Notes: generated by a model from the letters alone, not told the origin. A stretch of DNA of 64,000 nt from Alphaproteobacteria bacterium UBA7314 (GCA_002471575.1 DKQG01000050.1:9813-73812), one strand, 5' to 3'; counted from the first letter of the stretch, positions 35,983-46,392 are shown. Translations and numbers: made by a program.

Positions 35983-36522
35983 TCAGGAGTCTCTCTTGTC
36001 CTCGCTGTTGTCTTCGGCGGTTGCCTCCGTCGCTTCAGCGTCGGTAGTTTCCGTTTCCTCCTCAGCATGGGCAGCCTGTTCCATAGCTTCATCCTGCATT
36101 TCGACCGCCTCGGCAGCAGTCGCGGGCGATGCATCCTTGCCTACGGTCGCAGCGGCAAACCGCCGGTCGACCTTCTCGGCGATCCGGGCAGACTTGCCAC
36201 GGCGCGACCGAAGGTAATACAGCTTGGCACGTCGGACGGCGCCGCGGCGCACGACCTCGATCTTCTCTATCCGCGGGCTGTAGAGCGGGAATACGCGTTC
36301 CACGCCCTCGCCGTAGGAAATCTTTCGCACCGTGAAAGACGAATTCAGCGCCTTCGCCGTGCGAGCGATCACCACGCCTTCATAAACCTGCACGCGCTCC
36401 CGCGCGCCTTCGACCACTTTGTAGTGGACGCGGACCGTATCTCCGGGAGCGAATTCGGGGACCGGCCGCTCCGCGACCAGGCGTTCGATCTCGCCCTTTT
36501 CGATTTGTTCAATCACGTTCAT
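35983..36522 (-). CDS. rplS: 50S ribosomal protein L19 with an approximately 55-aa acidic C-terminal extension
   Basis: The first roughly 120 aa form a canonical L19 (..[37 protein letters not shown]). The remainder is an E/A/T/D-rich tail. Confidence 0.9.
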
Positions 36523-37249
36523 GGCAATGTTCCTTCTGGTTCTTCAGGTCCCGCTGATACCGATCCCACAGATCGGGCCGCCGTTCCCGTGTTGCGATCT
36601 CCGCCTGCTCCGTTCGCCAGGCGCAGATATTCTCGTGATGGCCGGACAACAGAATGTCCGGCACCTTGCGTCCGCACCAGTCGGCCGGCCGCGTGTAATG
36701 AGGATATTCGAGCAATCCCCGGTTAAAGCTCTCTTCGTGGAGCGACGCTTCCGTGCCCATGACACCGGGCAGCAGACGCACGCAGGCATCGATCAGCGCC
36801 AGCGCCGCGGGCTCGCCACCCGACAGCACGAAATCGCCAAGGCTGATCTCGGTGACGTTGCGCGCATCCAGCACGCGCTGATCGATTCCCTCGTAGCGGC
36901 CGCAGATCAGCGTAAGGCCGGGTCCGGCTGCAAGCTCGACCGCCTTCGTCTGGCTGAATGTCTTGCCGCGCGGCGTCAGATAAACCAGCGGGGCATCCGT
37001 CAGCGCGGATGCTTCGATGGCGGCATCGACGACGTCGGCGCGCATCACCATGCCGGCGCCGCCACCAAAAGGCGTATCGTCAACCGTCCGGTGCTTGTCC
37101 GTCGCATGGTCGCGAATGTCGACGGCCTCTAGCAACCACGCACCATCGGCCAGCGCCTTGCCGGCAAGCGAATGAGCGAGCGGACCCGGAAACATGTCCG
37201 GGAACAGCGTCAGCACACTCGCCGTCCATTTATTGTGTTCGTCGGTCAC
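36509..37249 (-). CDS. trmD: tRNA (guanine37-N1)-methyltransferase
   Basis: 246 aa with the SPOUT motifs (VLTLFPDMF.., [24 protein letters not shown]). Confidence 0.93.
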
Positions 37250-37866
37250 TCTTCGGTCTCGTCTTCTCTATTCTCTTCCTTATCGTCTTCTACTTCGTCG
37301 GGCGGGTCGACGGTCAATCTTCCCGCCGCAATGTCTATGTCCGGCACCAACGCTTTCGTGAACGGTACCAGCAGTGTCTCCTGTCCCGAGCCCCGGTCGA
37401 TTTCCAGCACCTCGTTTGCGCCTGCCGGTATGATCGACCTGACGGTCCCGATCCTTTTTTCATCCTGCACGACCTCCAGCCCGAGAAGATCAGCATGATA
37501 AAATTCGTCCTCATCCGGTTCTGGCAGCGCGTCTTTCGACACGTAAAGTCTGAGACCCTTCAGTCCCTCCGCCGCGCTGCGGTCCGCGACCCCGTCAAGG
37601 GCTGCGATCACCATCCCACCGCGGACGGCCTCGATACCGATCTCGAACCGGCAGTTGCCCGCCTCGTCCGATACTGGCCCGTAGCCGGCGACGTCTTCCG
37701 GCAGTTCGGTGAAGGGCTTGATTTTAACCGATCCACGGATGCCGTGCGCGCCCGCGATGGCCCCGACACAGACACGGTCGCGATCCGCCGCGCCCTGAAC
37801 CCGTGCCGATGATGCAACCGCCGTGGAACTACCTCCGCGCCAGCCGCCGGACGAACGTCCTGCCAC
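37246..37866 (-). CDS. rimM: Ribosome maturation factor RimM with an acidic C-terminal tail
   Basis: 206 aa with a PRC-barrel, sitting between rpsP and trmD as in the conserved operon. The tail is [17 protein letters not shown]. Confidence 0.85.
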
Positions 37867-37871
37867 CAGAG

Positions 37872-38396
37872 TTAGCCCTCCTTATTCTCTTGTTCCTCGG
37901 CAGCAGCCTCTTGAGCGGGTGCTTCCTCAACAGGGGCCTCTTCAGCCGCAGTTTCTTCGGCCGATGCTTCCTCGGCTGGCACTTCTTCTGCAGCAGCTTC
38001 TTCGGCCGGGGCATCGGCTTCTGACGTCGCGGCATCCGCCTCGGCGCCAGCCCTTGCCTTGGCCGCTTCTTCAGCCTCTCTCATGCGTTCAAGCGTCTTG
38101 GGCCGCGGCGCGCTCTGCTTCGGCGTTTCGCGGATTTCTGGCATCGGGATGATCTCGGCCCGGCCAAGGAATTTAGCCACCCGGTCCGATGGCTTGGCAC
38201 CGACACCGAGCCAATGCTTGATGCGCTCGTCGTTTAGCTTGATCCGGTCGGGGTGTTCCTGCGGCAACATCGGGTTATAAGTACCGACACGTTCGATATA
38301 GCGGCCGTCGCGCGGCATGCGCGAATCCGCAACAACGATACGATAGTAGGGACGCTTTTTTGCACCGCCCCGGGATAGTCTAAGTTTAAGCGACAT
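37872..38396 (-). CDS. rpsP: 30S ribosomal protein S16 with an approximately 85-aa Ala/Glu-rich C-terminal extension
   Basis: A canonical S16 N-terminus (MSLKLRLSRGGAKKRPYYRIVVADSRMPRDGRYIERVGTYNP) is followed by AEE/PAEE-type imperfect repeats. I place the start at the Met at 38396. Confidence 0.88.
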   Translation of the reverse strand: MSLKLRLSRGGAKKRPYYRIVVADSRMPRDGRYIERVGTYNPMLPQEHPDRIKLNDERIKHWLGVGAKPSDRVAKFLGRAEIIPMPEIRETPKQSAPRPKTLERMREAEEAAKARAGAEADAATSEADAPAEEAAAEEVPAEEASAEETAAEEAPVEEAPAQEAAAEEQENKEG

Positions 38397-38488
38397 TAGG
38401 TTATTAACCCTCCATTTGATCGCGATTGTTGAAGTGTTTCGAATAAATCGTTGGTTTCGTTCCAGTTCCCTGCAGCTCAGCCGCGTCT

Positions 38489-39865
38489 TCATCTCATGCC
38501 GGGTCCCGGCGGCAAGCCGGGGGGCATTATTCCGGGCATTCCGGACCGCATCAGGCCCTTCTTTCCCATCTTCTTCATCTTTTTCATCATGCGGGTCATT
38601 TCCTGATACTGCTTCAGGAGCTTGTTGACGTCCTGCACGGTGGTGCCCGATCCGGCGGCGATCCGGCGCTTGCGGGATGCCTTGATCACGTCGGGTTTCT
38701 TGCGTTCGGTGACCGTCATCGAGCCGATGATCGCTTCCTGGTGGATGACCGTCTTGTCGTCGACATTGGCCGCCGCCATCTGCGCCTGCGCCTTTTTTAC
38801 GCCGGGCAGCATGCCCATCACGCCACTCAGCCCGCCCATCTTGCGAAGCTGGCGAAGCTGCGAGGCGAAATCATCGAGATCAAAGCTGCCCGCCTCCATC
38901 TTCTTCATCAGCCGTTCGGCTTCGTCCTGCTCAACCAGCTCGGACGCTTTTTCAACCAGGCTGACGACATCGCCCATGCCGAGAATACGCGACGCGATCC
39001 GGTCGGGGTGAAAGGCTTCTAACGCTTCCAGTTTTTCGCCAGTGCCCAGCAGGCGGATCGGCGTGCCGGTAACGGCCTTCATCGACAATGCGGCGCCACC
39101 ACGGGCATCTCCGTCGACACGGGTCAGCACGATACCCGTTAGGTCAAGCTTCTCGTTGAAAGACTCGGCGACGTTCACGGCATCTTGGCCGGTCATGGCA
39201 TCGGCAACCAGTAGGATTTCCGCCGGGCGCGCGCCGTCGCGCACATCCGCGACCTCGGCCATCAGGTCATCGTCGACATGCAGGCGGCCCGCGGTATCTA
39301 GGATGACCACGTCGTAGCCTTCCCTCTTCGCCGTATCCATGGCGCGGTCTGCGATCATGCGCGGCGTCTGGAGCGGCACGATCGGTAGGGTATCCACTTT
39401 GGCCTGTTCGCCGAGCACCGCCAACTGCTGCTGTGCCGCCGGGCGGCGCACGTCGAGCGACGCCATCAGCACCTTCTTAGCCTGCTTTTCTTGGATGCGC
39501 CTGGCGATCTTAGCCGACGACGTCGTCTTACCGGAACCCTGCAGCCCGACCATCATCACGGCTGCGGGCGATGCGGCGCGAACCTCGAAGTCTTCGGTCT
39601 CCGGCCCGAGCATCTCGACCAGGTAGTCGTTGACGATCTTGACGACTTGCTGGCCCGGCGTCACCGAGCGCAGGACTTCCTCGCCGACGGCCCGTTCCTT
39701 TACGCCGTCGACGAAATCCTTGACGACGGGCAGCGCGACATCGGCTTCGAGCAGGGCGACGCGGATTTCGCGCATCGTCGCCGACACGTCGGCCTCGGAC
39801 AGCGCACCGCGCTTCTTCAGCTTGTCGAATATCTCGCCGAAACGATCTGTCAGTCCGTCGAACAT
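38489..39865 (-). CDS. ffh: Signal recognition particle protein Ffh
   Basis: 458 aa with an N domain, a GTPase domain (GLQGSGKTTSSAKIA, DTAGR) and a Met-rich M domain (MMKKMKKMGKKGLMRSGM). Confidence 0.95.
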   Translation of the reverse strand: MFDGLTDRFGEIFDKLKKRGALSEADVSATMREIRVALLEADVALPVVKDFVDGVKERAVGEEVLRSVTPGQQVVKIVNDYLVEMLGPETEDFEVRAASPAAVMMVGLQGSGKTTSSAKIARRIQEKQAKKVLMASLDVRRPAAQQQLAVLGEQAKVDTLPIVPLQTPRMIADRAMDTAKREGYDVVILDTAGRLHVDDDLMAEVADVRDGARPAEILLVADAMTGQDAVNVAESFNEKLDLTGIVLTRVDGDARGGAALSMKAVTGTPIRLLGTGEKLEALEAFHPDRIASRILGMGDVVSLVEKASELVEQDEAERLMKKMEAGSFDLDDFASQLRQLRKMGGLSGVMGMLPGVKKAQAQMAAANVDDKTVIHQEAIIGSMTVTERKKPDVIKASRKRRIAAGSGTTVQDVNKLLKQYQEMTRMMKKMKKMGKKGLMRSGMPGIMPPGLPPGPGMR

Positions 39866-40178
39866 GTGCCCTTGGCACTCCGTTCAGTTACCTCGACCCG
39901 CAATTCCGACTGTCAAAAATTCCCCAACGCAAATCGCGCCAGTGCGCGCACCTGCGCGGACCGACGTTCACCCGAAAGCGTTGGACAATGTCTTTTGTCT
40001 TGGGCGGGGCGGAAATTAGGGGGGTTTGGGGGTGACGTCAAGGATTTAGAGGCATCTGAAGTCCCATTTGACCGTCATCACATAATTGCCTCATTTCTGC
40101 GCTTTAACCGTAACAATTAATTCCCAGTTTAGGGGGTAACTTCACATTACGCAGACGGATGGTACAAGGAATACCGGG

Positions 40179-40370
40179 ATGAAGACCTCGCAAACGACCC
40201 CTAGAGTAGCAGCGGCAATTGCCGGCATGGCGCTGTTTCTGGGCGCTGCCGCAGCTGCGGGTATCGAACGCGGCAAGGACATGGTGGGCTCAGGTGAAGT
40301 GGTGTCCGCGCAGGAAGCTATTTGGGCGCTTGATATCGTGACAACCGTCGGTTCCTCCTACGCCGAGTAG
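40179..40370 (+). CDS. Possible small secreted peptide (63 aa)
   Basis: AAGGAA lies 8 nt upstream of the ATG. A signal-like N-terminus MKTSQTTPRVAAAIAGMALFLGAAAAAG leaves a mature part of about 35 aa (IERGKDMVGSGEVVSAQEAIWALDIVTTVGSSYAE). I recognise no family. It is convergent with the neighbouring amidohydrolase gene. Confidence 0.35.
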   Translation: MKTSQTTPRVAAAIAGMALFLGAAAAAGIERGKDMVGSGEVVSAQEAIWALDIVTTVGSSYAE

Positions 40371-40424
40371 GATAACGCCCGCCTCGGGAATGGACGGAAC
40401 GCCTGCACGCGCTTGGCGCGCAAT

Positions 40425-41495
40425 TCAGTTCAGATTGTAGAAGCTGATCATGTTGTCATGAACCAGCTTGCACTTGATCTCGTTCGAGAACTCGTTGTTT
40501 TCCAGGAACTCGGGCAACTCTGTGGTGAGATCCTCCTCGGTCGGCTCGTGAGGGTAGTCCGACGCGTAGAGGATGCGGTCCGGGCCTATGGCGTCGATGG
40601 TGTATTTTAGGTTCCGCTCGCCGAGCTCCACGGCGACCCAGAAATTGTCCCCTTCGCGCAGATAGTCTGACGGGCGCTTTTTCAGCTTGGCCCGGCTGGC
40701 CGCCCCGAACACGGATTCGTATTCGTAATCCATGCGGTCCATCATGAATGGTACCCAGGTCGCGCCGCCTTCTAGGAAGGCAATCTTCAGCTTGGGGAAA
40801 GCATCCCACATGCCTGAGAACACGATGTCAGTCAGCTGCATCATCAGCGGGAACGGGTGTTCCAGCGTGTGCACCTTCACGAATTCGCGGAAATGGTTGA
40901 AACCCATGCCGCGGCTCGGCCCGCCGTGGATGGCTAGCGGCATGTTGTTCTTTTCCGCCGCCTCGAAGATCGGCCAGAAGAACTCGTCGCCGCAGGTTTT
41001 GCCCAGATAGGTCTGCGACGGCAGCATCATGGCGGGGAAGCGCACGCGCTCGTTGGCGCAGCGCTCGATCTCCTTCGCCGCCTCTTCCGGCACCTGCACC
41101 GGCACGATACCGGCGCCGTAGAGCCGTTCGTCCTTCGACGTGTAGCGGTCTTCCAGCCAGTTGTTGTAGGCCTTGATGGTCTCGACCACCCACTTGGGAT
41201 CCGAGATCAGCCCGGCCGCAAGACCCGCCGTCGGATAAAGCACCGTGCCGTCGGCACCGATTATGTCGAGCATCTCGGCCCACACATCGGCGTCGGTATG
41301 GGTATAGCGTCGGGGTTAGCAGTCGTTGGATGCCATGATGAAGCCGCGCGCCCACCCATCGAGGCTGGGCCAGACCCCAAAGGTCTTGAAGCGCTGCAGA
41401 TTGGCAAAATCGCCCTCAAAATATTCAGCGATCTCTTCATCGTTCTCGAGCACGTGCCCGTCGCCGTCAAAGACGTCGAATCCGTTGATAGCCAT
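40425..41495 (-). pseudogene. Amidohydrolase-2 family (ACMSD-like metal-dependent hydrolase/decarboxylase) gene interrupted by an in-frame TAA
   Basis: The C-terminal 286 codons (40425-41285) carry amidohydrolase-2 motifs (AIHGGP.., ..ILYASDYPHEP). An N-terminal 58-codon segment (41322-41495, MAINGFDVFDGDGHVLE..) is in the same frame. The two are separated by a single TAA at 41316-41318 on the minus strand. Confidence 0.6.
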
Positions 41496-41701
41496 CAGTC
41501 CCTCCCGGTTTTCATCGCGTTCCCTGCCCTAAATTCATGACCTCCACAGGCACCGAGTCAATGACGGTCCGGGAGGGTAAGAGGGCCGACGCCGAGACAA
41601 CGAATGTTCAGGCTTCTCCCCAAACAAGGGAGAAGGCGGATTTGGAAATCGCGTCCGGAAGGATATATGCTCTGGCAACAGTTTGACCGACCGAGGCGGC
41701 C

Positions 41702-42100
41702 ATGACCGAAAACACGCTCGATAATTTCGAAAACGGCGACGAGACCAAGATCAACTACTACCACGCCCATATCTATTACGGCGACGACGACGCTGTGCGC
41801 GAAACTGCGGCGCGACTGCGTGAAAAGGCGTGGAACAAATGGCCCGGCAAGGTGCGCATGGGCCGGTTCCGCGACAAGGCGGTCGGACCGCATCCGCTGG
41901 CCATGTACCAGATCGAGTTCGACCACGAGATCTTCGACGAGATCGTTCCCTGGCTGATGTACAACCGCGACGGCTTGACCATCCTGCTCCATCCCGACGC
42001 CGAAGACGCCTGGCGCGATCACGCCTGGTACCCGTTCTGGATGGGCGAAAAGCTGGACCTACGACTGAACTGGCTGGCGGCGGGCAACCGACAGGCTTAG
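41702..42100 (+). CDS. DOPA 4,5-dioxygenase-family protein (small aromatic ring-cleavage dioxygenase-like)
   Basis: 132 aa with the motif YHAHIYYGDDD..., which is characteristic of the approximately 110-130-aa DOPA-dioxygenase family. Confidence 0.6.
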   Translation: MTENTLDNFENGDETKINYYHAHIYYGDDDAVRETAARLREKAWNKWPGKVRMGRFRDKAVGPHPLAMYQIEFDHEIFDEIVPWLMYNRDGLTILLHPDAEDAWRDHAWYPFWMGEKLDLRLNWLAAGNRQA

Positions 42101-43338
42101 GGCGTATACCGCCTGAGCCGCTTCCAGATCAGCCACGCGGCGAGGCCGAGTACGACTTGCATGCCGATAACAGGGTACAGCGTTCCGTCATAGATCAGTC
42201 CCTGGGCAAGCGATACGGCAGCGGCCGCGCACATCTGCACGAAGCCGAGTACCGCCGCCGCCGCGCCCGCGGCTTTGGGGTGGGACATCATCACGCCTGC
42301 CGCCGTGTTAGGGGCCAGAAACCCGCCGCCGAACCAGAATACAAACTGGAGCGCGACGATAAGCGCGACTGGCAGCCACCCCGCCAGAGCCAGTCCGGTC
42401 AGCACGAGGGGCGGAAAAAACATTAGCGCGAGACTGACATGGATAACCTTCGCCGAGCCCCAGCGGGGAATCGCCGAGCGTGCGGCGAACGATCCTGTCA
42501 GAAAGCCCGACATGGCGAGGGCGGCGATTACGCCGTAGACGGAAGGCATCGTGCCCAGACTTTCGATGAAGTAGTACGGCCCGCCGGCGACGAAGCAATA
42601 GAGCCCCGCATAGCCGATCGAGTGGGTTAGCATGAAAGCGAGAAAGCCCTTGTGCCGGAACAGGCCCAGATAGACGATATGGACCTTCTGTGCTTCCGAC
42701 GCGGGGGCAACGGTACCGGTTTCGGGCAGGACGAAGAGTGTCGAGACGAGCCAGATCAGCGCGGCGGCACCGGCAAAAACGAACCCGGCGCGCCAGCTGG
42801 CAACGTCGATGAGCGCACCGCCGACCAGGGGAGCAGCCAGAAAAGAGGCGGCCATCAGAGCGAACAGCGCTGCCATGGCTTTCGGCGCGCCGTCCGCGCC
42901 GTAGATATCCCGAACGATGGCCCGCGACACGACGTACCCCGAAGCGCCGCCCAGCCCTTGGATGGCACGGCCCAGAACGATCACCCAGATACTGTCCGCC
43001 ATGGCAGCGATTGCCGACCCGGCCAAAGTGAGGACCGCCCCGATCAGCAGCGCGGTCCGGCGGCCGCGGCGGTCGGAGAACGGACCAAAGAACAACTGGC
43101 CCGACGCAAACATCACGGCAAAGGAAACAATGGTGAGCTGGATGGTCACGGGCGACCGCTGAAAAACGTCGCCCAGGGCCGGCATGGCGGGCACGATCAG
43201 CCCGGTCGCGACTTCTCCGAAAGACGTACAAAGAACCAGCGTCGCGAAAACCAGAACGCCGGCGCCCTCACGAGGGCGGGACACGAACTGGTTTTCGGAT
43301 TCTCGGGTCATGATGGGCAACCGATCCCGGAACCGCAT
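42097..43338 (-). CDS. MFS transporter (Bcr/CflA-like drug:H+ antiporter family)
   Basis: About 410 aa with 12 predicted TM segments and the MFS motif GPFSDRRGRRTALL after TM2. The start is ambiguous between 43338 and 43311. Confidence 0.85.
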   Translation of the reverse strand: MRFRDRLPIMTRESENQFVSRPREGAGVLVFATLVLCTSFGEVATGLIVPAMPALGDVFQRSPVTIQLTIVSFAVMFASGQLFFGPFSDRRGRRTALLIGAVLTLAGSAIAAMADSIWVIVLGRAIQGLGGASGYVVSRAIVRDIYGADGAPKAMAALFALMAASFLAAPLVGGALIDVASWRAGFVFAGAAALIWLVSTLFVLPETGTVAPASEAQKVHIVYLGLFRHKGFLAFMLTHSIGYAGLYCFVAGGPYYFIESLGTMPSVYGVIAALAMSGFLTGSFAARSAIPRWGSAKVIHVSLALMFFPPLVLTGLALAGWLPVALIVALQFVFWFGGGFLAPNTAAGVMMSHPKAAGAAAAVLGFVQMCAAAAVSLAQGLIYDGTLYPVIGMQVVLGLAAWLIWKRLRRYTP

Positions 43339-43349
43339 TCTCCCAACAT

Positions 43350-44288
43350 CTAGTCCTCAAGCCCCACCAGCGAGCGCGCAAAGGCATCAGCTTCGAACGG
43401 ACGCAGGTCGTCTTCGCCCTCGCCGACGCCGACGGCGTGCACCGGCAGACCGAACTTTTCCGCCAGCGCGACCAGTACGCCGCCGCGCGCCGAGCCGTCC
43501 AGTTTGGTCACCACCAGTCCGGTGACGCTGCACATGCTCTGGAAGGTTTCGACCTGGGAATGGGCGTTCTGACCGGTGGTGGCATCCAACACCAGCAGCG
43601 TGTCGTGCGGCGCGGTTTTGTCCTGCTTCGAGATAACCCGCACGACCTTTTGCAATTGCTGCATCAGGTCGTCACGGTTCTGCAGGCGGCCGGCGGTATC
43701 GATCAGCAACACGTCGATGTCGTCCGCCCGGGCGCGGTCGATGGCTTCGAACGCAAGGCTGGCGGCATCGGCGCCCTGCTCGCTTGCCACCACGGGGCAC
43801 CCCGTCCGTTCGCCCCAGATCTTGAGCTGTTCAATGGCTGCTGCGCGGAACGTGTCACCCGCCGCCAGCATCACGGACTTCCCGTCCTCCCTCAGGCGTT
43901 TGGCGAGCTTGCCGATGGTCGTCGTCTTGCCAGACCCGTTGACCCCGGTGACGAGGATGACATGTGGGCGATGAACGGCATTGGCGGCCAGCGGCCTGGC
44001 GACCGGTTCTAGGATGGCGGACACTTCGTCCGCGAGCGCAGTGCGAATTTCGTCTGCCGAGACTTCCTTGTCGAACCGGGTACCGGCCAGCGATGCCGAT
44101 AGTTTGGCTGCCGTCTCCACGCCCAGATCGGACGTGATCAAAAGGTCTTCGAGCTCTTCCAGCGCGGCATCGTCCAGCTTTCGGCCGGAAAAGATGCCAA
44201 CGATGCCGTCGGACAGGCGGGACGAAGATCGGCTGAGTCCGGCGCGAAGGCGTGCAAGCCAACCCTTTTTCTCGCTCTCTTCGCTCAT
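43350..44288 (-). CDS. ftsY: Signal recognition particle receptor FtsY (short form, NG domain)
   Basis: 312 aa with GTPase motifs GVNGSGKTTTIGKLA and DTAGRLQN. Confidence 0.93.
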   Translation of the reverse strand: MSEESEKKGWLARLRAGLSRSSSRLSDGIVGIFSGRKLDDAALEELEDLLITSDLGVETAAKLSASLAGTRFDKEVSADEIRTALADEVSAILEPVARPLAANAVHRPHVILVTGVNGSGKTTTIGKLAKRLREDGKSVMLAAGDTFRAAAIEQLKIWGERTGCPVVASEQGADAASLAFEAIDRARADDIDVLLIDTAGRLQNRDDLMQQLQKVVRVISKQDKTAPHDTLLVLDATTGQNAHSQVETFQSMCSVTGLVVTKLDGSARGGVLVALAEKFGLPVHAVGVGEGEDDLRPFEADAFARSLVGLED

Positions 44289-45535
44289 GCGGCTTTTCGC
44301 GCGATCAGCGTGTCGTTGTCACGGGCGACGATGCGGGCGGGCACGATAACGCCATCCGCCGCTGCGCCGTCGATGCGGACATTGGCGAACTGAGGCGTCC
44401 GACCGGCCGCGTCCTTTTCGACCAGCACGTCGGCGACGGAGCCGATCTGCGCATCGAGGAACCGCTGTACCTGCGCCGCTCCCGCCGCGCGCAGTTCGGC
44501 GGCGCGGGCCTTACGTATGTCACCGGGCAGTTGCGGCATCTTCGCCGCGGGCGTGCCGGAGCGCTCGGAATAGGGAAATACGTGCAGCCACGTCAGCCCG
44601 CACCGCTCGACCAGCGAAACGGAATTTGCGAACGCGTCGTCGGTTTCGGTCGGGAAGCCGGCGATGATATCGGCGCCGAACGCGGCGTCGGGGCGCAGAG
44701 CCCGGACACGGTCGACGAAACGTTCGATATCGGCACGACAGTGGCGGCGTTTCATGCGTTTCAGGATCAGGTCGTCGCCCGACTGCACACTGATATGGAA
44801 ATGCGGCATCAGACGCGGTTCGTCCGCGATCAGGCCGAACAGCGTGTCGTCAATTTCCGCCGGATCGACCGAGCTGAGCCGCAGCCGCGGCAGATCGGAC
44901 ACCAACGCCAGCAGGCGTTTGATCATGTCGCCGAGCCGCGGCCTACCGGGCAGGTCCAGTCCGTAGTCAGTGATGTCGACGCCGGTCAGCACAATTTCGC
45001 GGTAGCCCTGATCGACCAGGGTACGGACCTGGTCGACGATCACGCCGATGGGGACCGAACGGTTATTTCCGCGGCCGAACGGGATGATGCAGAACGTGCA
45101 ACGGTGATCGCAGCCCTGCTGGATCTCGACGAAGACCCGGGCGCGGCCCTCGAAACCGGAAATCAGGTGCGGTGCGGTTTCGCGAACGGTCATGATGTCG
45201 TTGACCGACACGCGGGGGGTATCGCCGAGCCCGGACCATGTGTCGGCACGCAGCTTTTCCTCGTTACCGATCACGCGATCGACTTCTTCCATGGCGGCGT
45301 ACTTGTCCGGGTCGATCTGCGCAGCACAGCCGGTGACGATGATCCGGGCGTCGGGGTTTTCGCGCCGGGCGCGGCGGATGGACTGGCGCACCTGGCGTTC
45401 GGCCTCTGCCGTGACGGCGCAGGAATTTACGATAACCGCGTCTTCCAGTCCGGTGGCGGCGGCATGGCCGCGCATGACCTCGGATTCAAAGGCATTGAGC
45501 CGGCAGCCGAATGTCAGGATGTCTGTCGCGCTCAT
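44285..45535 (-). CDS. mtaB: Radical-SAM methylthiotransferase, MiaB-like (MtaB)
   Basis: 416 aa with an N-terminal MTTase domain ([11 protein letters not shown]), the radical-SAM CxxxCxxC box ([11 protein letters not shown]) and a C-terminal TRAM-like domain. It sits between dapF and ftsY, the usual alphaproteobacterial context. Confidence 0.85.
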
Positions 45536-46392
45536 CCGAGCAGGCTTTCGTCGATCGTTCCGGAGAAGCTGGTGGCCCCCGGACCGGTCATGAACACACG
45601 GCCCGGTTCGCCGGGTCGGTCCTCGCGCCAGTCGATCAGCAGTTCGCCTCCGTCGACAACGACCACCATGCGCCGGCCGGCCAGGTTGCGGCGGTTGGCA
45701 TTGACCACGGCAGCGCAGGCGCCGGTCCCGCAGGCCGAGGTCAGCCCGACGCCGCGCTCCCAGACGCGAAGTCGCATGCGATCCGGTGCCAGGATCTGGG
45801 CGACGCCGATATTGGCCCGTTCCGGAAAGACCGGATGGACTTCCAGTTCCGGGCCGACCAGAGCGATAGGTATGGAATCGACATCGTCGACGAAAAAAGT
45901 TGCATGCGGGTTGCCCATGCTGACCGCCGCCGGGTCGTCCAACGGTCCGCAGGCAAGATCGAGATGAAGCGTGTCGGCTTCCGCCACCAGCGGAATCTGG
46001 TCCCAGTCGCCGCGCGGAATACCCATGTCGACCGACACCAGCCCGTAACCCGCGCGTTTCACCGTCAGCAGGTCGGCGCCGGTGCGGACCCTTACCGCGT
46101 CGCCGTCGACTTCGTCCAGAAGTACGGCGCCGATGCAGCGCGTGGCATTGCCGCAGGCATCGACCTCGCCCCCGTCGGCGTTGCGGATGCGCATGAAGGC
46201 GTGGGAGTCGCCGTCGGGCGCGTCCTCGATGATGATGAACTGGTCGCAGCCGACGCCGGTACGGCGGTCGGCGATCGCCGCCGCCTGGGCAGCCGAAATC
46301 GCCGCGCCGGCGGCGGGTTTCCCGCCACGCGCGTCAATCACCACGAAATCGTTGCCGAGCCCGTGCATTTTCGTAAACGGCAGTTCGGTCAT
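45532..46392 (-). CDS. dapF: Diaminopimelate epimerase
   Basis: 286 aa beginning [23 protein letters not shown], with the two catalytic Cys regions ([16 protein letters not shown]; ACGTGACAA). Confidence 0.93.

Follow-up and report, generated by a model that had tools for sequence, protein, structure and literature searches.

The interval between ffh and ftsY

The window analyzed here is a 64,000-nucleotide stretch of Alphaproteobacteria bacterium UBA7314 (DKQG01000050.1:9813-73812), and our subject is the interval in it that separates ffh from ftsY, two genes of the signal recognition particle (SRP) pathway. Four open reading frames (ORFs) are found in this interval: a gene for a 63 amino acid protein (the mini-ORF), a gene of the PF04909 amidohydrolase family that contains a stop codon, a gene of the PF08883 (DOPA 4,5-dioxygenase) family and a gene for a transporter of the major facilitator superfamily (MFS). 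A first-pass annotation had described them as a small accessory island inserted between two conserved genes; gene calls, Pfam and NCBIfam reproduce the coordinates of the four ORFs exactly and agree with the gene identities (Table 1). Based on the comparison with relatives, we find it probable that the interval has been passed down vertically in a clade of uncultured marine Alphaproteobacteria, with a gene content that changes fast, and that the window carries a reduced version of it.

On the minus strand of the window the interval is bordered by rplS-trmD-rimM-rpsP-ffh (35983-39865) on one side and by dapF-mtaB-ftsY (46392-43350) on the other. In the latter unit ftsY is the final gene and the coordinates overlap (mtaB 44285-45535, dapF 45532-46392).

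Table 1. Features of the ffh–ftsY interval and its two flanking genes (window coordinates).
Feature	Coordinates	Strand	Basis or remark
ffh (SRP54 homologue), left flank	38489..39865	-	TIGR00959, 587.6 bits against a cut-off of 473; Pfam SRP54_N, SRP54, SRP_SPB
Conserved non-coding block upstream of ffh	39913..40047	-	Alignment to relatives
Small protein gene (mini-ORF), 63 aa	40179..40370	+	ORF coordinates and orthologues in seven lineages
PF04909 pseudogene, ARO-like type	40425..41495	-	357 codons in one frame; Pfam
In-frame TAA nonsense codon, Glu60 to stop	41316..41318	-	Alignment to orthologues
136-bp stretch, deletion scar and divergent promoter region	41564..41699	.	About 3.17 kb here in relatives
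PF08883 gene (DOPA 4,5-dioxygenase family), intact, 132 aa	41702..42100	+	Pfam, E 2e-31
MFS transporter gene, Bcr/CflA type, 413 aa	42097..43338	-	PF07690; TIGR00710 near the cut-off
ftsY (SRP receptor), right flank	43350..44288	-	TIGR00064, 327.5 bits against a cut-off of 260.7

Gene order in related lineages

Intervals of relatives were collected with three probes, the PF08883 protein, the mini-ORF protein and the PF04909 protein, and about 10 species-level lineages were recovered (Table 2). In the source records, members of this clade carry the labels UBA830, 'MarineAlpha11' or Rhodospirillaceae. All of these lineages have homologous genes in this interval, so that the proposed insertion or accessory island is not supported and the arrangement in the window appears as a reduced derivative. 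The fullest arrangement consists of ffh, the mini-ORF, the PF04909 gene, a MetE-like gene, a PaaK-like CoA ligase gene followed by the PF08883 gene, in some cases the MFS gene, and ftsY.

Table 2. Gene order in related lineages; percentages are ffh identity to the window, and brackets mark genes present in part of a group or in the named members.
Lineage	ffh identity	Gene order
L021	97%	ffh, mini-ORF, PF04909, PF08883, ~2.5 kb of other genes, ftsY
L098	95%	ffh, mini-ORF, PF04909, Meth_synt_2 (MetE-like), PaaK-like AMP-ligase, PF08883, phosphonate ABC transporter
L017	92%	ffh, PF08883, MFS, ftsY
L007, L018, L019, L030	91%	ffh, (MCP in L007-L009), 301-aa protein, mini-ORF, PF04909, PF08883, (YCII-like and TetR in L007-L009), ftsY
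L010, L020 (UBA830)	91%	ffh, PF04909, MetE-like, ligase, PF08883, MFS, ftsY
L022	86%	ffh, PF04909, 3 kb, MetE-like, ligase, PF08883, ftsY

The window is collinear with L098 over positions 39866-41563 and 41700-42104, and positions 9369-12540 of L098 have no counterpart in it. These ~3.17 kb hold the MetE-like and ligase genes, and at the same place the window has 136 bp that show no similarity to any of the fetched loci. No remnants of the MetE-like or ligase genes were found in the 206-bp spacer between the PF04909 and PF08883 genes or elsewhere in the window. The MetE-like, ligase and PF08883 genes (the trio) are found together in L022, L010 and L098, which are respectively the most distant, an intermediate and a close lineage, and repeated loss therefore seems more parsimonious than repeated gain. 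In the species of the window the MetE-like and CoA ligase genes would have been deleted, which would have reduced ~3.2 kb to 136 bp.

The PF04909 gene is a recent pseudogene

The gene at 40425-41495 matches PF04909 with 92.4 bits (E 5.6e-26). Its frame of 357 codons contains a single internal TAA, which leaves a piece of 59 amino acids and a second one of 282 or 286 amino acids, and the description of a stop-interrupted amidohydrolase-family gene was thus correct: one in-frame TAA lies in a single reading frame. Where the orthologues read GGC GAA or GGC GAG, the window reads TGC TAA, which corresponds to two G-to-T changes that are 3 nt apart. The TAA is present in six of six independently assembled contigs from metagenomes or metagenome-assembled genomes (MAGs; L001-L006), all of which are 99.4-100% identical to the window across the interval, and it is therefore not a read error. 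An exact-sequence look-up returned the 59-aa truncated product from 49 contigs, which come from five data sources. It returned neither of two full-length alleles in which the stop had been reverted by construction (residues 59-60 as C-E or G-E), but it is blind to intact alleles differing at any other residue.

The orthologous gene has exactly 356 codons in eight other lineages and evolves under strong constraint there (omega 0.04-0.08), and the copy in the window is 89-93% identical to the intact 356-aa orthologues. At residues that are identical in the eight clade orthologues, the lineage of the window has acquired D20E, G59C, E60*, A103V, Y168C, D200N, M289V and D338N. Among these, G59C and Y168C are radical substitutions, and D200 is invariant also in a broader family alignment of 24 sequences (53-84% identity to its first sequence). 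The pairwise omega between the window and L098 is still low (0.036), and the inactivation is therefore recent. The stop on many contigs, together with the second G-to-T change and the population variants described below, means that this is a genuine pseudogene that is widespread in the population. The gene was probably killed by a GAA-to-TAA nonsense mutation.

One population contig carries a frameshifting 20-bp tandem duplication (AGGTCGCGCCGCCTTCTAGG; L001:7045-7064) within the dead gene, at window position 40756, and the N-gap of a MAG scaffold (L005:6728-7056) falls exactly at this site. The duplication and the gap suggest a structural polymorphism in the pseudogene. The "missing" middle of the gene in the same MAG was considered as a deletion and rejected, as it is a scaffold gap of Ns. 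The split gene in L097 was also rejected as a case of independent pseudogenization: the long-read contig that carries it has frame-shifted ffh and ftsY genes as well, which points to indel errors. In this assembly (contig_121) several essential genes are found in frame-shifted pieces, as is typical of such errors, and the case calls for caution with pseudogene counts that are taken from long-read assemblies with indel errors.

Family placement of the PF04909 protein

The gene had been labelled as ACMSD-like, a label that the structural databases do not bear out: the nearest solved relatives are amidohydrolase-related dinuclear oxygenases (AROs), ahead of LigW and ACMSD. In a single-sequence search of the PDB the best match was 8SM9 (E 5e-33), followed by PtmU3, 8SM8, AibH, LigW (4ICM) in fifth place and then SfbO. 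When the family profile was used, the top five matches were all AROs (8SM9, 1e-45; 8SM8, 3e-36; PtmU3, 3e-34; 8SM7, 4e-34; SfbO, 5e-34), with LigW (4ICM) sixth at 3e-31 and ACMSD at 6e-19.

AROs are defined by an N-terminal D-x-H motif together with a C-terminal D-x-P-H-x-[D/E] motif (PMC13154177; see also PMC10811679). In the window family the N-terminal D12-G13-H14, within F-D-G-D-G-H-V, is invariant and agrees with D-x-H as a sequence pattern. The C-terminal motif is located at residues 313-318 of 356 and is preceded by at least 200 residues, as in AROs. Compared with the AROs SfbO, PtmU3, AibH2 and DitZ (PMC10811679, PMC13154177), the protein has the same PF04909 domain, the same N-terminal D-x-H and a C-terminal loop, A-S-D-Y-P-H, of the ARO kind, and its best PDB matches by sequence and by profile are AROs. 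The differences are that the window family has an invariant D-Y-P-H-E-P in place of D-x-P-H-x-[DE], with the carboxylate one register early, that no Rieske ferredoxin gene was found nearby, and that the copy in the window is dead. With the mononuclear PF04909 decarboxylases (ACMSD, LigW and gamma-resorcylate decarboxylase) the protein shares the Pfam family and the TIM-barrel fold. These mononuclear decarboxylases lack both the D-x-H and the D-x-P-H motifs (PMC13154177), whereas the window family has both. The gene at 40425-41495 thus resembles an ARO and can be described as the remnant of an ARO-like putative oxygenase, which we do not file as a confirmed ARO; NCBIfam gave no match for this protein, nor for the PF08883 protein.

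The D-Y-P-H-E-P loop (residues 313-318 of alignment A4; window 40542-40559, minus strand) is invariant in this PF04909 subfamily, and the subfamily would therefore drop out of the published ARO census, which filters for D-x-P-H-x-[DE]. More than 680 clusters at E <=1e-20 belong to the ARO-like subfamily; the gene is often found just upstream of ffh, and some members are fused to a CDGSH domain. Two homologues with 54% identity, P0254 (479 amino acids) and P0276 (495 amino acids), carry such a fused CDGSH iron-sulfur domain (PF09360). This fusion fits a redox enzyme and hints at a built-in electron-transfer partner. No Rieske gene was found in the interval or beside the orthologues that were examined; however, the 54%-identical homologues have the fused CDGSH domain. 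The high-potential ('H') class of AROs is largely without neighbouring Rieske genes (PMC13154177).

In a distant alphaproteobacterial genome of 4.5 Mb, ffh-rpsP-rimM-trmD-rplS is immediately preceded, on its own strand, by an orthologue with 75% identity (L102:8001-10889), and neither a PF08883 gene nor ftsY was found near this orthologue. The PF04909 gene must therefore have stood beside ffh before the clade arose, and its place there does not depend on the PF08883 module.

The PF08883 protein and its partners

The 132-aa protein matches the PF08883 profile over the whole domain (108.8 bits against a cut-off of 25, E 2e-31, profile positions 1-104 of 106), as had been expected from the first look at the sequence. 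Its similarity to PDB entries 2PEB (E 4e-29 over residues 13-125) and 2NYH/2P8I (E 3e-24), taken as a proxy for the fold, also supports the predicted DOPA-dioxygenase fold. In an alignment of 12 sequences 41 columns are invariant, and the window protein agrees with all of them, H21, H23, H64, H97 and H107 included. A His-His-His metal site has been proposed for the family (PMC9097196), and the five histidines, all of them invariant, are candidate metal ligands.

In contrast to its neighbours, the PF08883 gene is found in every lineage of the clade and is the sole constant resident of the interval. It is under purifying selection (omega 0.03-0.15), also in lineages that lack its former neighbours. 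At least 25 contigs encode the exact protein; most of them come from marine metagenomes (Tara Oceans included), and two MAGs are among the sources.

Characterized members of the family include the bacterial GdDODA (Gluconacetobacter diazotrophicus) and AcDODA (Anabaena cylindrica) as well as an Amanita enzyme, which catalyze extradiol cleavage of L-DOPA in vitro (PMC6426604, PMC9097196). Compared with these proteins (Amanita muscaria DodA among them) and with the structural-genomics entries 2NYH/2P8I and 2PEB, the window protein has the full-length domain and the same size of about 120-130 amino acids, and its Y-H-A-H-[VI]-Y motif is shared with the GdDODA peptide QIGTIGSYHAHVYF (PMC6426604); the identity to 2PEB and 2NYH is moderate. 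By analogy with the L-DOPA-cleaving members, the protein is probably still functional and may be a small metal-dependent dioxygenase of the extradiol type with a catecholic substrate.

What sets the window subfamily apart from the known members is that it is normally translationally coupled to a PaaK-like CoA ligase, which has been lost here. The ligase gene lies directly upstream of the PF08883 gene, with anything from a 4-nt overlap to a 23-nt gap, and its product is 69-85% identical across Alphaproteobacteria. In more distant Alphaproteobacteria, whose neighbourhoods were read from pre-called genes, the trio (with MetE and ligase divergent) or the ligase-PF08883 pair is also found away from ffh and ftsY, and the ligase is therefore the usual partner of PF08883. 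The pair was seen at L100:8554-10384, at L101:8568-10369 and in L023-L031, in diverse Alphaproteobacteria (Defluviicoccus and others). It is often flanked by a divergent MetE-like gene, and in L101 there are also genes for a BioB-like radical SAM protein and an aminotransferase. The tight pairing with the ligase is a hint that the bacterial "DOPA dioxygenases" may act on a native substrate other than L-DOPA.

The mini-ORF

An AAGGA sequence lies ~9 nt upstream of the ATG of the mini-ORF, and the N-terminal of the protein has K2, R9, a hydrophobic stretch at residues 10-21 and then GAAAAAG (both by inspection). Its signal-peptide-like character and the convergence of the gene with PF04909 had been noted before, and both are correct. 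Orthologues of 57-65 amino acids occupy the same position, convergent with PF04909, in L021, L098, L007, L018, L019, L030 and L097. A profile search of 5.8 billion proteins gave 36 clusters of 31-106 amino acids (mostly 50-71), and an exhaustive HMMER search of 1.84 billion representatives gave only 18 homologues, all of 53-106 amino acids. As all homologues are short (106 amino acids at most), the protein is not a fragment of a larger family; neither Pfam nor NCBIfam has a match for it.

The ~40 N-terminal residues are conserved, with M-K-x-S-x-T-T-x-[RK], a hydrophobic segment that leads to L-F-x-G-A-A-A-A-A-G and then [IV]-[DE]-R-G-x-[DE]-[LM], whereas the tail at the C-terminal end differs between orthologues. 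The first 40 codons have omega values of 0.05-0.25, with synonymous sites near saturation, and the tail, which varies in length, has values of 0.23-0.36. The AlphaFold model has a helix at residues 6-38 with low confidence (mean pLDDT 60), and we used it only for the predicted N-terminal helix. The mini-ORF is a real gene for a clade-restricted small protein, and a clean example of a conserved small protein of this kind that has no family assignment.

Conservation in relatives that keep the other genes is partial: the mini-ORF is present in the seven lineages named above and absent from L010, L020 and L022, which have kept PF04909, as well as from L017, in which PF04909 is also absent. Its link to PF04909 is therefore positional and not obligatory.

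The N-terminal fits a Sec signal peptide with an AxA-like site and a signal-anchor equally well. We lean towards a small membrane-anchored protein over an exported peptide with a functional mature part, because the "signal" is the most constrained part of the sequence. The protein is probably still functional; it would have an N-terminal hydrophobic helix followed by a juxtamembrane motif and may be membrane-anchored or secreted. The other option extends the earlier suggestion of an exported peptide substrate: the mini-ORF would encode a ribosomally made exported peptide, as a precursor or for signalling, of which the mature C-terminal part is functional and possibly the substrate of the neighbouring enzymes. 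The Sec-type n-h-c layout with its AxA-like GAAAAAG, the small product and some constraint on the tail would agree with this option. Yet, the would-be signal peptide is the best conserved part while the tail varies in length and sequence, no peptide-modifying or peptide-maturation enzyme and no dedicated exporter co-occurs with the gene, and the gene persists beside the dead PF04909 gene while it is missing from three lineages where PF04909 is intact. We therefore regard an exported peptide substrate as unlikely.

A role as a secretion monitor that regulates ffh, in the style of SecM or MifM, was considered and rejected: the mini-ORF is divergent from ffh and does not lie upstream of it in the same transcript, and in the L007 group two other genes lie between them. 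A 53-aa variant, P0143 (on a 1.16-Mb contig), departs from the window protein after residue 39, up to which the two are identical, and runs on in another frame as KWCPRRKLFGRLIS. This end corresponds to an alternative-frame ORF of the window (40219-40341) and may be a real frameshift allele or a long-read error.

The MFS gene and the proposed small-molecule module

The MFS protein is a clear member of MFS_1 (PF07690, 122.5 bits against 33.4, E 2.4e-35). Compared with Bcr/CflA efflux proteins (TIGR00710), it matches over the full length (residues 40-397 to model positions 16-373 of 385, E 8e-58), whereas its score of 196.7 bits lies just below the curated cut-off of 200.9, a near miss, and the gene is the last one after ftsY and is not in an operon with PF08883. 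It starts 11 nt past the ftsY stop on the same strand, and it stands tail-to-tail with PF08883, with a 4-nt overlap of the stops. Orthologues with 74% identity are found only in L010, L020 and L017, and the other relatives have different genes at that position. Since the gene is variable in relatives and follows ftsY so closely, it is more likely to be part of the ftsY transcript, that is, the variable final gene of the dapF-mtaB-ftsY unit rather than a dedicated exporter of the PF08883 product. The transporter, of Bcr/CflA type, is probably still functional and would be read through from that operon.

It had been proposed that the four genes form a working module, in which ring cleavage and hydrolysis would lead to a pigment-like or siderophore-like product that the MFS protein exports. 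At the level of the family, the idea of betalamic acid or muscaflavin chemistry is a fair lead, as PF08883 members form these compounds from L-DOPA in vitro (PMC6426604, PMC9097196); moreover, three lineages have the MFS and PF08883 genes as tail-to-tail neighbours, and in L100 the PF08883 gene borders on another MFS gene. However, nothing in the data supports a pigment or siderophore pathway: no gene for a nonribosomal peptide synthetase, polyketide synthase, tyrosinase or tyrosine hydroxylase was seen in the interval or its relatives. The amidohydrolase of the proposed module is a pseudogene on 49 contigs, the MetE-like partner and the CoA ligase, which is the conserved partner of PF08883, are missing, and most relatives that have kept PF08883 lack the MFS gene, which lies on the other strand. 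A working amidohydrolase, dioxygenase and exporter module in the window is thus quite unlikely.

The ffh leader and the left boundary

A block of ~130 nt upstream of ffh (39913-40047) aligns to relatives over 64-130 nt with 73-92% identity (79-92% for six of the relatives), and the intergenic DNA around this block is not conserved. The block contains the hexamers CTTGAC (40036-40041) and TAATTT (40013-40018; TAATTT or TAGTTT in relatives) with a 17-nt spacer. A simple promoter scan did not flag these hexamers, of which the -10 matches at 3/6 positions. Downstream of the hexamers, 64-116 nt upstream of the ffh start at 39865, lies a GC-rich bulged hairpin (39929-39981, minus strand).

The ffh RNA motif has been described from marine Alphaproteobacteria, where it precedes ffh (Meyer et al., 2009; PMC2704228). 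The hairpin in the window agrees with the Rfam model of this motif (RF01793) in its position directly 5' of ffh on the same strand and in being a bulged GC-rich hairpin with CC in the bulge, and differs in that it scores below the threshold and lies within a longer conserved block of ~130 nt. In a search of 181 nt, the match to the full model (1-52) scores 20.1 bits (E 0.09), where the gathering score is 35; a scan of the whole window at the gathering threshold gave no matches, and the sub-threshold match appears only in the focused scan. The hairpin is almost invariant in the clade and thus offers nearly no covariation with which to test the structure. The motif was reported as absent from Rhodospirillales (Meyer et al., 2009; PMC2704228), and some records label relatives of the window organism as Rhodospirillaceae.

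The leader block belongs to ffh and not to the variable interval, and it marks the true left boundary. The comparative synteny that had been called for thus shows an interval that is occupied in ~10 lineages and has its left edge at the ffh block, and boundaries of an insertion were not borne out. An inverted repeat of 25 nt (39951-39975 and 40290-40314, 76% complementary) was also considered and judged to be due to chance, as its arm in the mini-ORF is not conserved in the L007-group orthologues.

Further along the ffh unit, the proteins L19, S16 and RimM (rplS, rpsP and rimM; window 35983-38492) have long acidic C-terminal tails rich in Ala, Glu and Asp. The S16 ORF has 206 codons from its first ATG and is called as 174 amino acids on contigs.

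Discussion

The comparison of the window with its relatives makes it probable, as stated at the outset, that the ffh–ftsY interval is an inherited and quickly changing neighbourhood, which in this species has been reduced by a deletion and by a nonsense mutation. Several points weigh against parts of this account. The direction of change, loss and not gain, is an inference by parsimony over a tree that was judged only from the identities of ffh, ftsY and mtaB. Apart from the stop and a few radical substitutions, the PF04909 copy shows little decay. As for the chemistry of its family, the invariant D313-Y-P-H-E317-P318 departs from the strict D-x-P-H-x-[DE], with the carboxylate at H+1 and Pro at H+2, and HMMER aligned E317 with the metal-binding Glu of PtmU3 only by way of a one-residue gap. 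The ARO-like gene may also be functionally unrelated to the PF08883 trio, as the two are not tightly linked outside the clade. Finally, GdDODA turns over L-DOPA slowly (kcat 0.5 per min; PMC6426604), and by analogy this leaves room for another physiological substrate.

One question that is raised by the limited decay is whether the TAA inactivates the gene at all. It could be an assembly artefact or be read through, or the enzyme could be active as two polypeptides, and the remaining frame, with its high identity to intact orthologues and low pairwise omega, would be compatible with these options. Nevertheless, the stop recurs in the six assemblies and on 49 contigs, a second G-to-T change lies 3 nt upstream of it, D200N affects a family-invariant residue, and one population contig has the frameshifting duplication. 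In addition, the GTG and ATG codons at which translation could restart downstream lack a Shine-Dalgarno sequence by inspection, and the D-x-H metal ligands are on the N-terminal fragment and would be separated from the rest of the barrel. A TAA that does not inactivate the gene is hence most improbable, and the "amidohydrolase" annotation of the window should be changed to a pseudogene of an ARO-like putative oxygenase, and not of an ACMSD-type enzyme.

The view of the interval as a recently acquired horizontal island between two SRP genes is practically untenable: the non-housekeeping content between housekeeping operons and a slight GC dip (0.54-0.58 around 40000-40750) would speak for it, but homologous genes fill the same interval across lineages with ffh identities of 86-97%, divergence tracks ffh (dS ~0.4-0.7 for ffh, the ARO-like gene and PF08883), the dip coincides with intergenic DNA and the mini-ORF, and no relative with an empty site was seen among the ~10 lineages. 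Overall, the GC of the interval (0.54-0.66) is near the local background (~0.60-0.67). Neither a tRNA gene nor significant flanking repeats were detected at the interval. No integrase, transposase or insertion sequence gene stood out when the called genes and Pfam labels of the interval and its relatives were read, although no dedicated search for mobility genes was run. The marks by which a genomic island is recognized, namely an empty site, mobility genes, repeats or a tRNA gene and deviant composition, were thus not seen here.

For the window itself the result is mostly corrective, in that an apparent accessory island turns out to be ordinary lineage-specific gene loss in a variable neighbourhood. 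Only three observations go beyond routine annotation: the ARO-like motif variant, the ligase-PF08883 pairing and the small-protein family that has no assignment. The ARO-like subfamily with its shifted carboxylate (D-x-P-H-E-P), which the current counting motif excludes, may enlarge the ARO superfamily. Taken together, it is possible, though doubtful, that this subfamily is a functional lineage of dinuclear oxygenases, or that the MetE-like/PaaK-like/PF08883 trio of marine Alphaproteobacteria defines an undescribed pathway in which a catecholic compound is activated with CoA. If the former is true, there would be dinuclear oxygenases that the published ARO motif filter has missed. If either is true, the window would show a species that is losing these genes, and the 63-aa protein of the clade would belong to that system as a membrane accessory.

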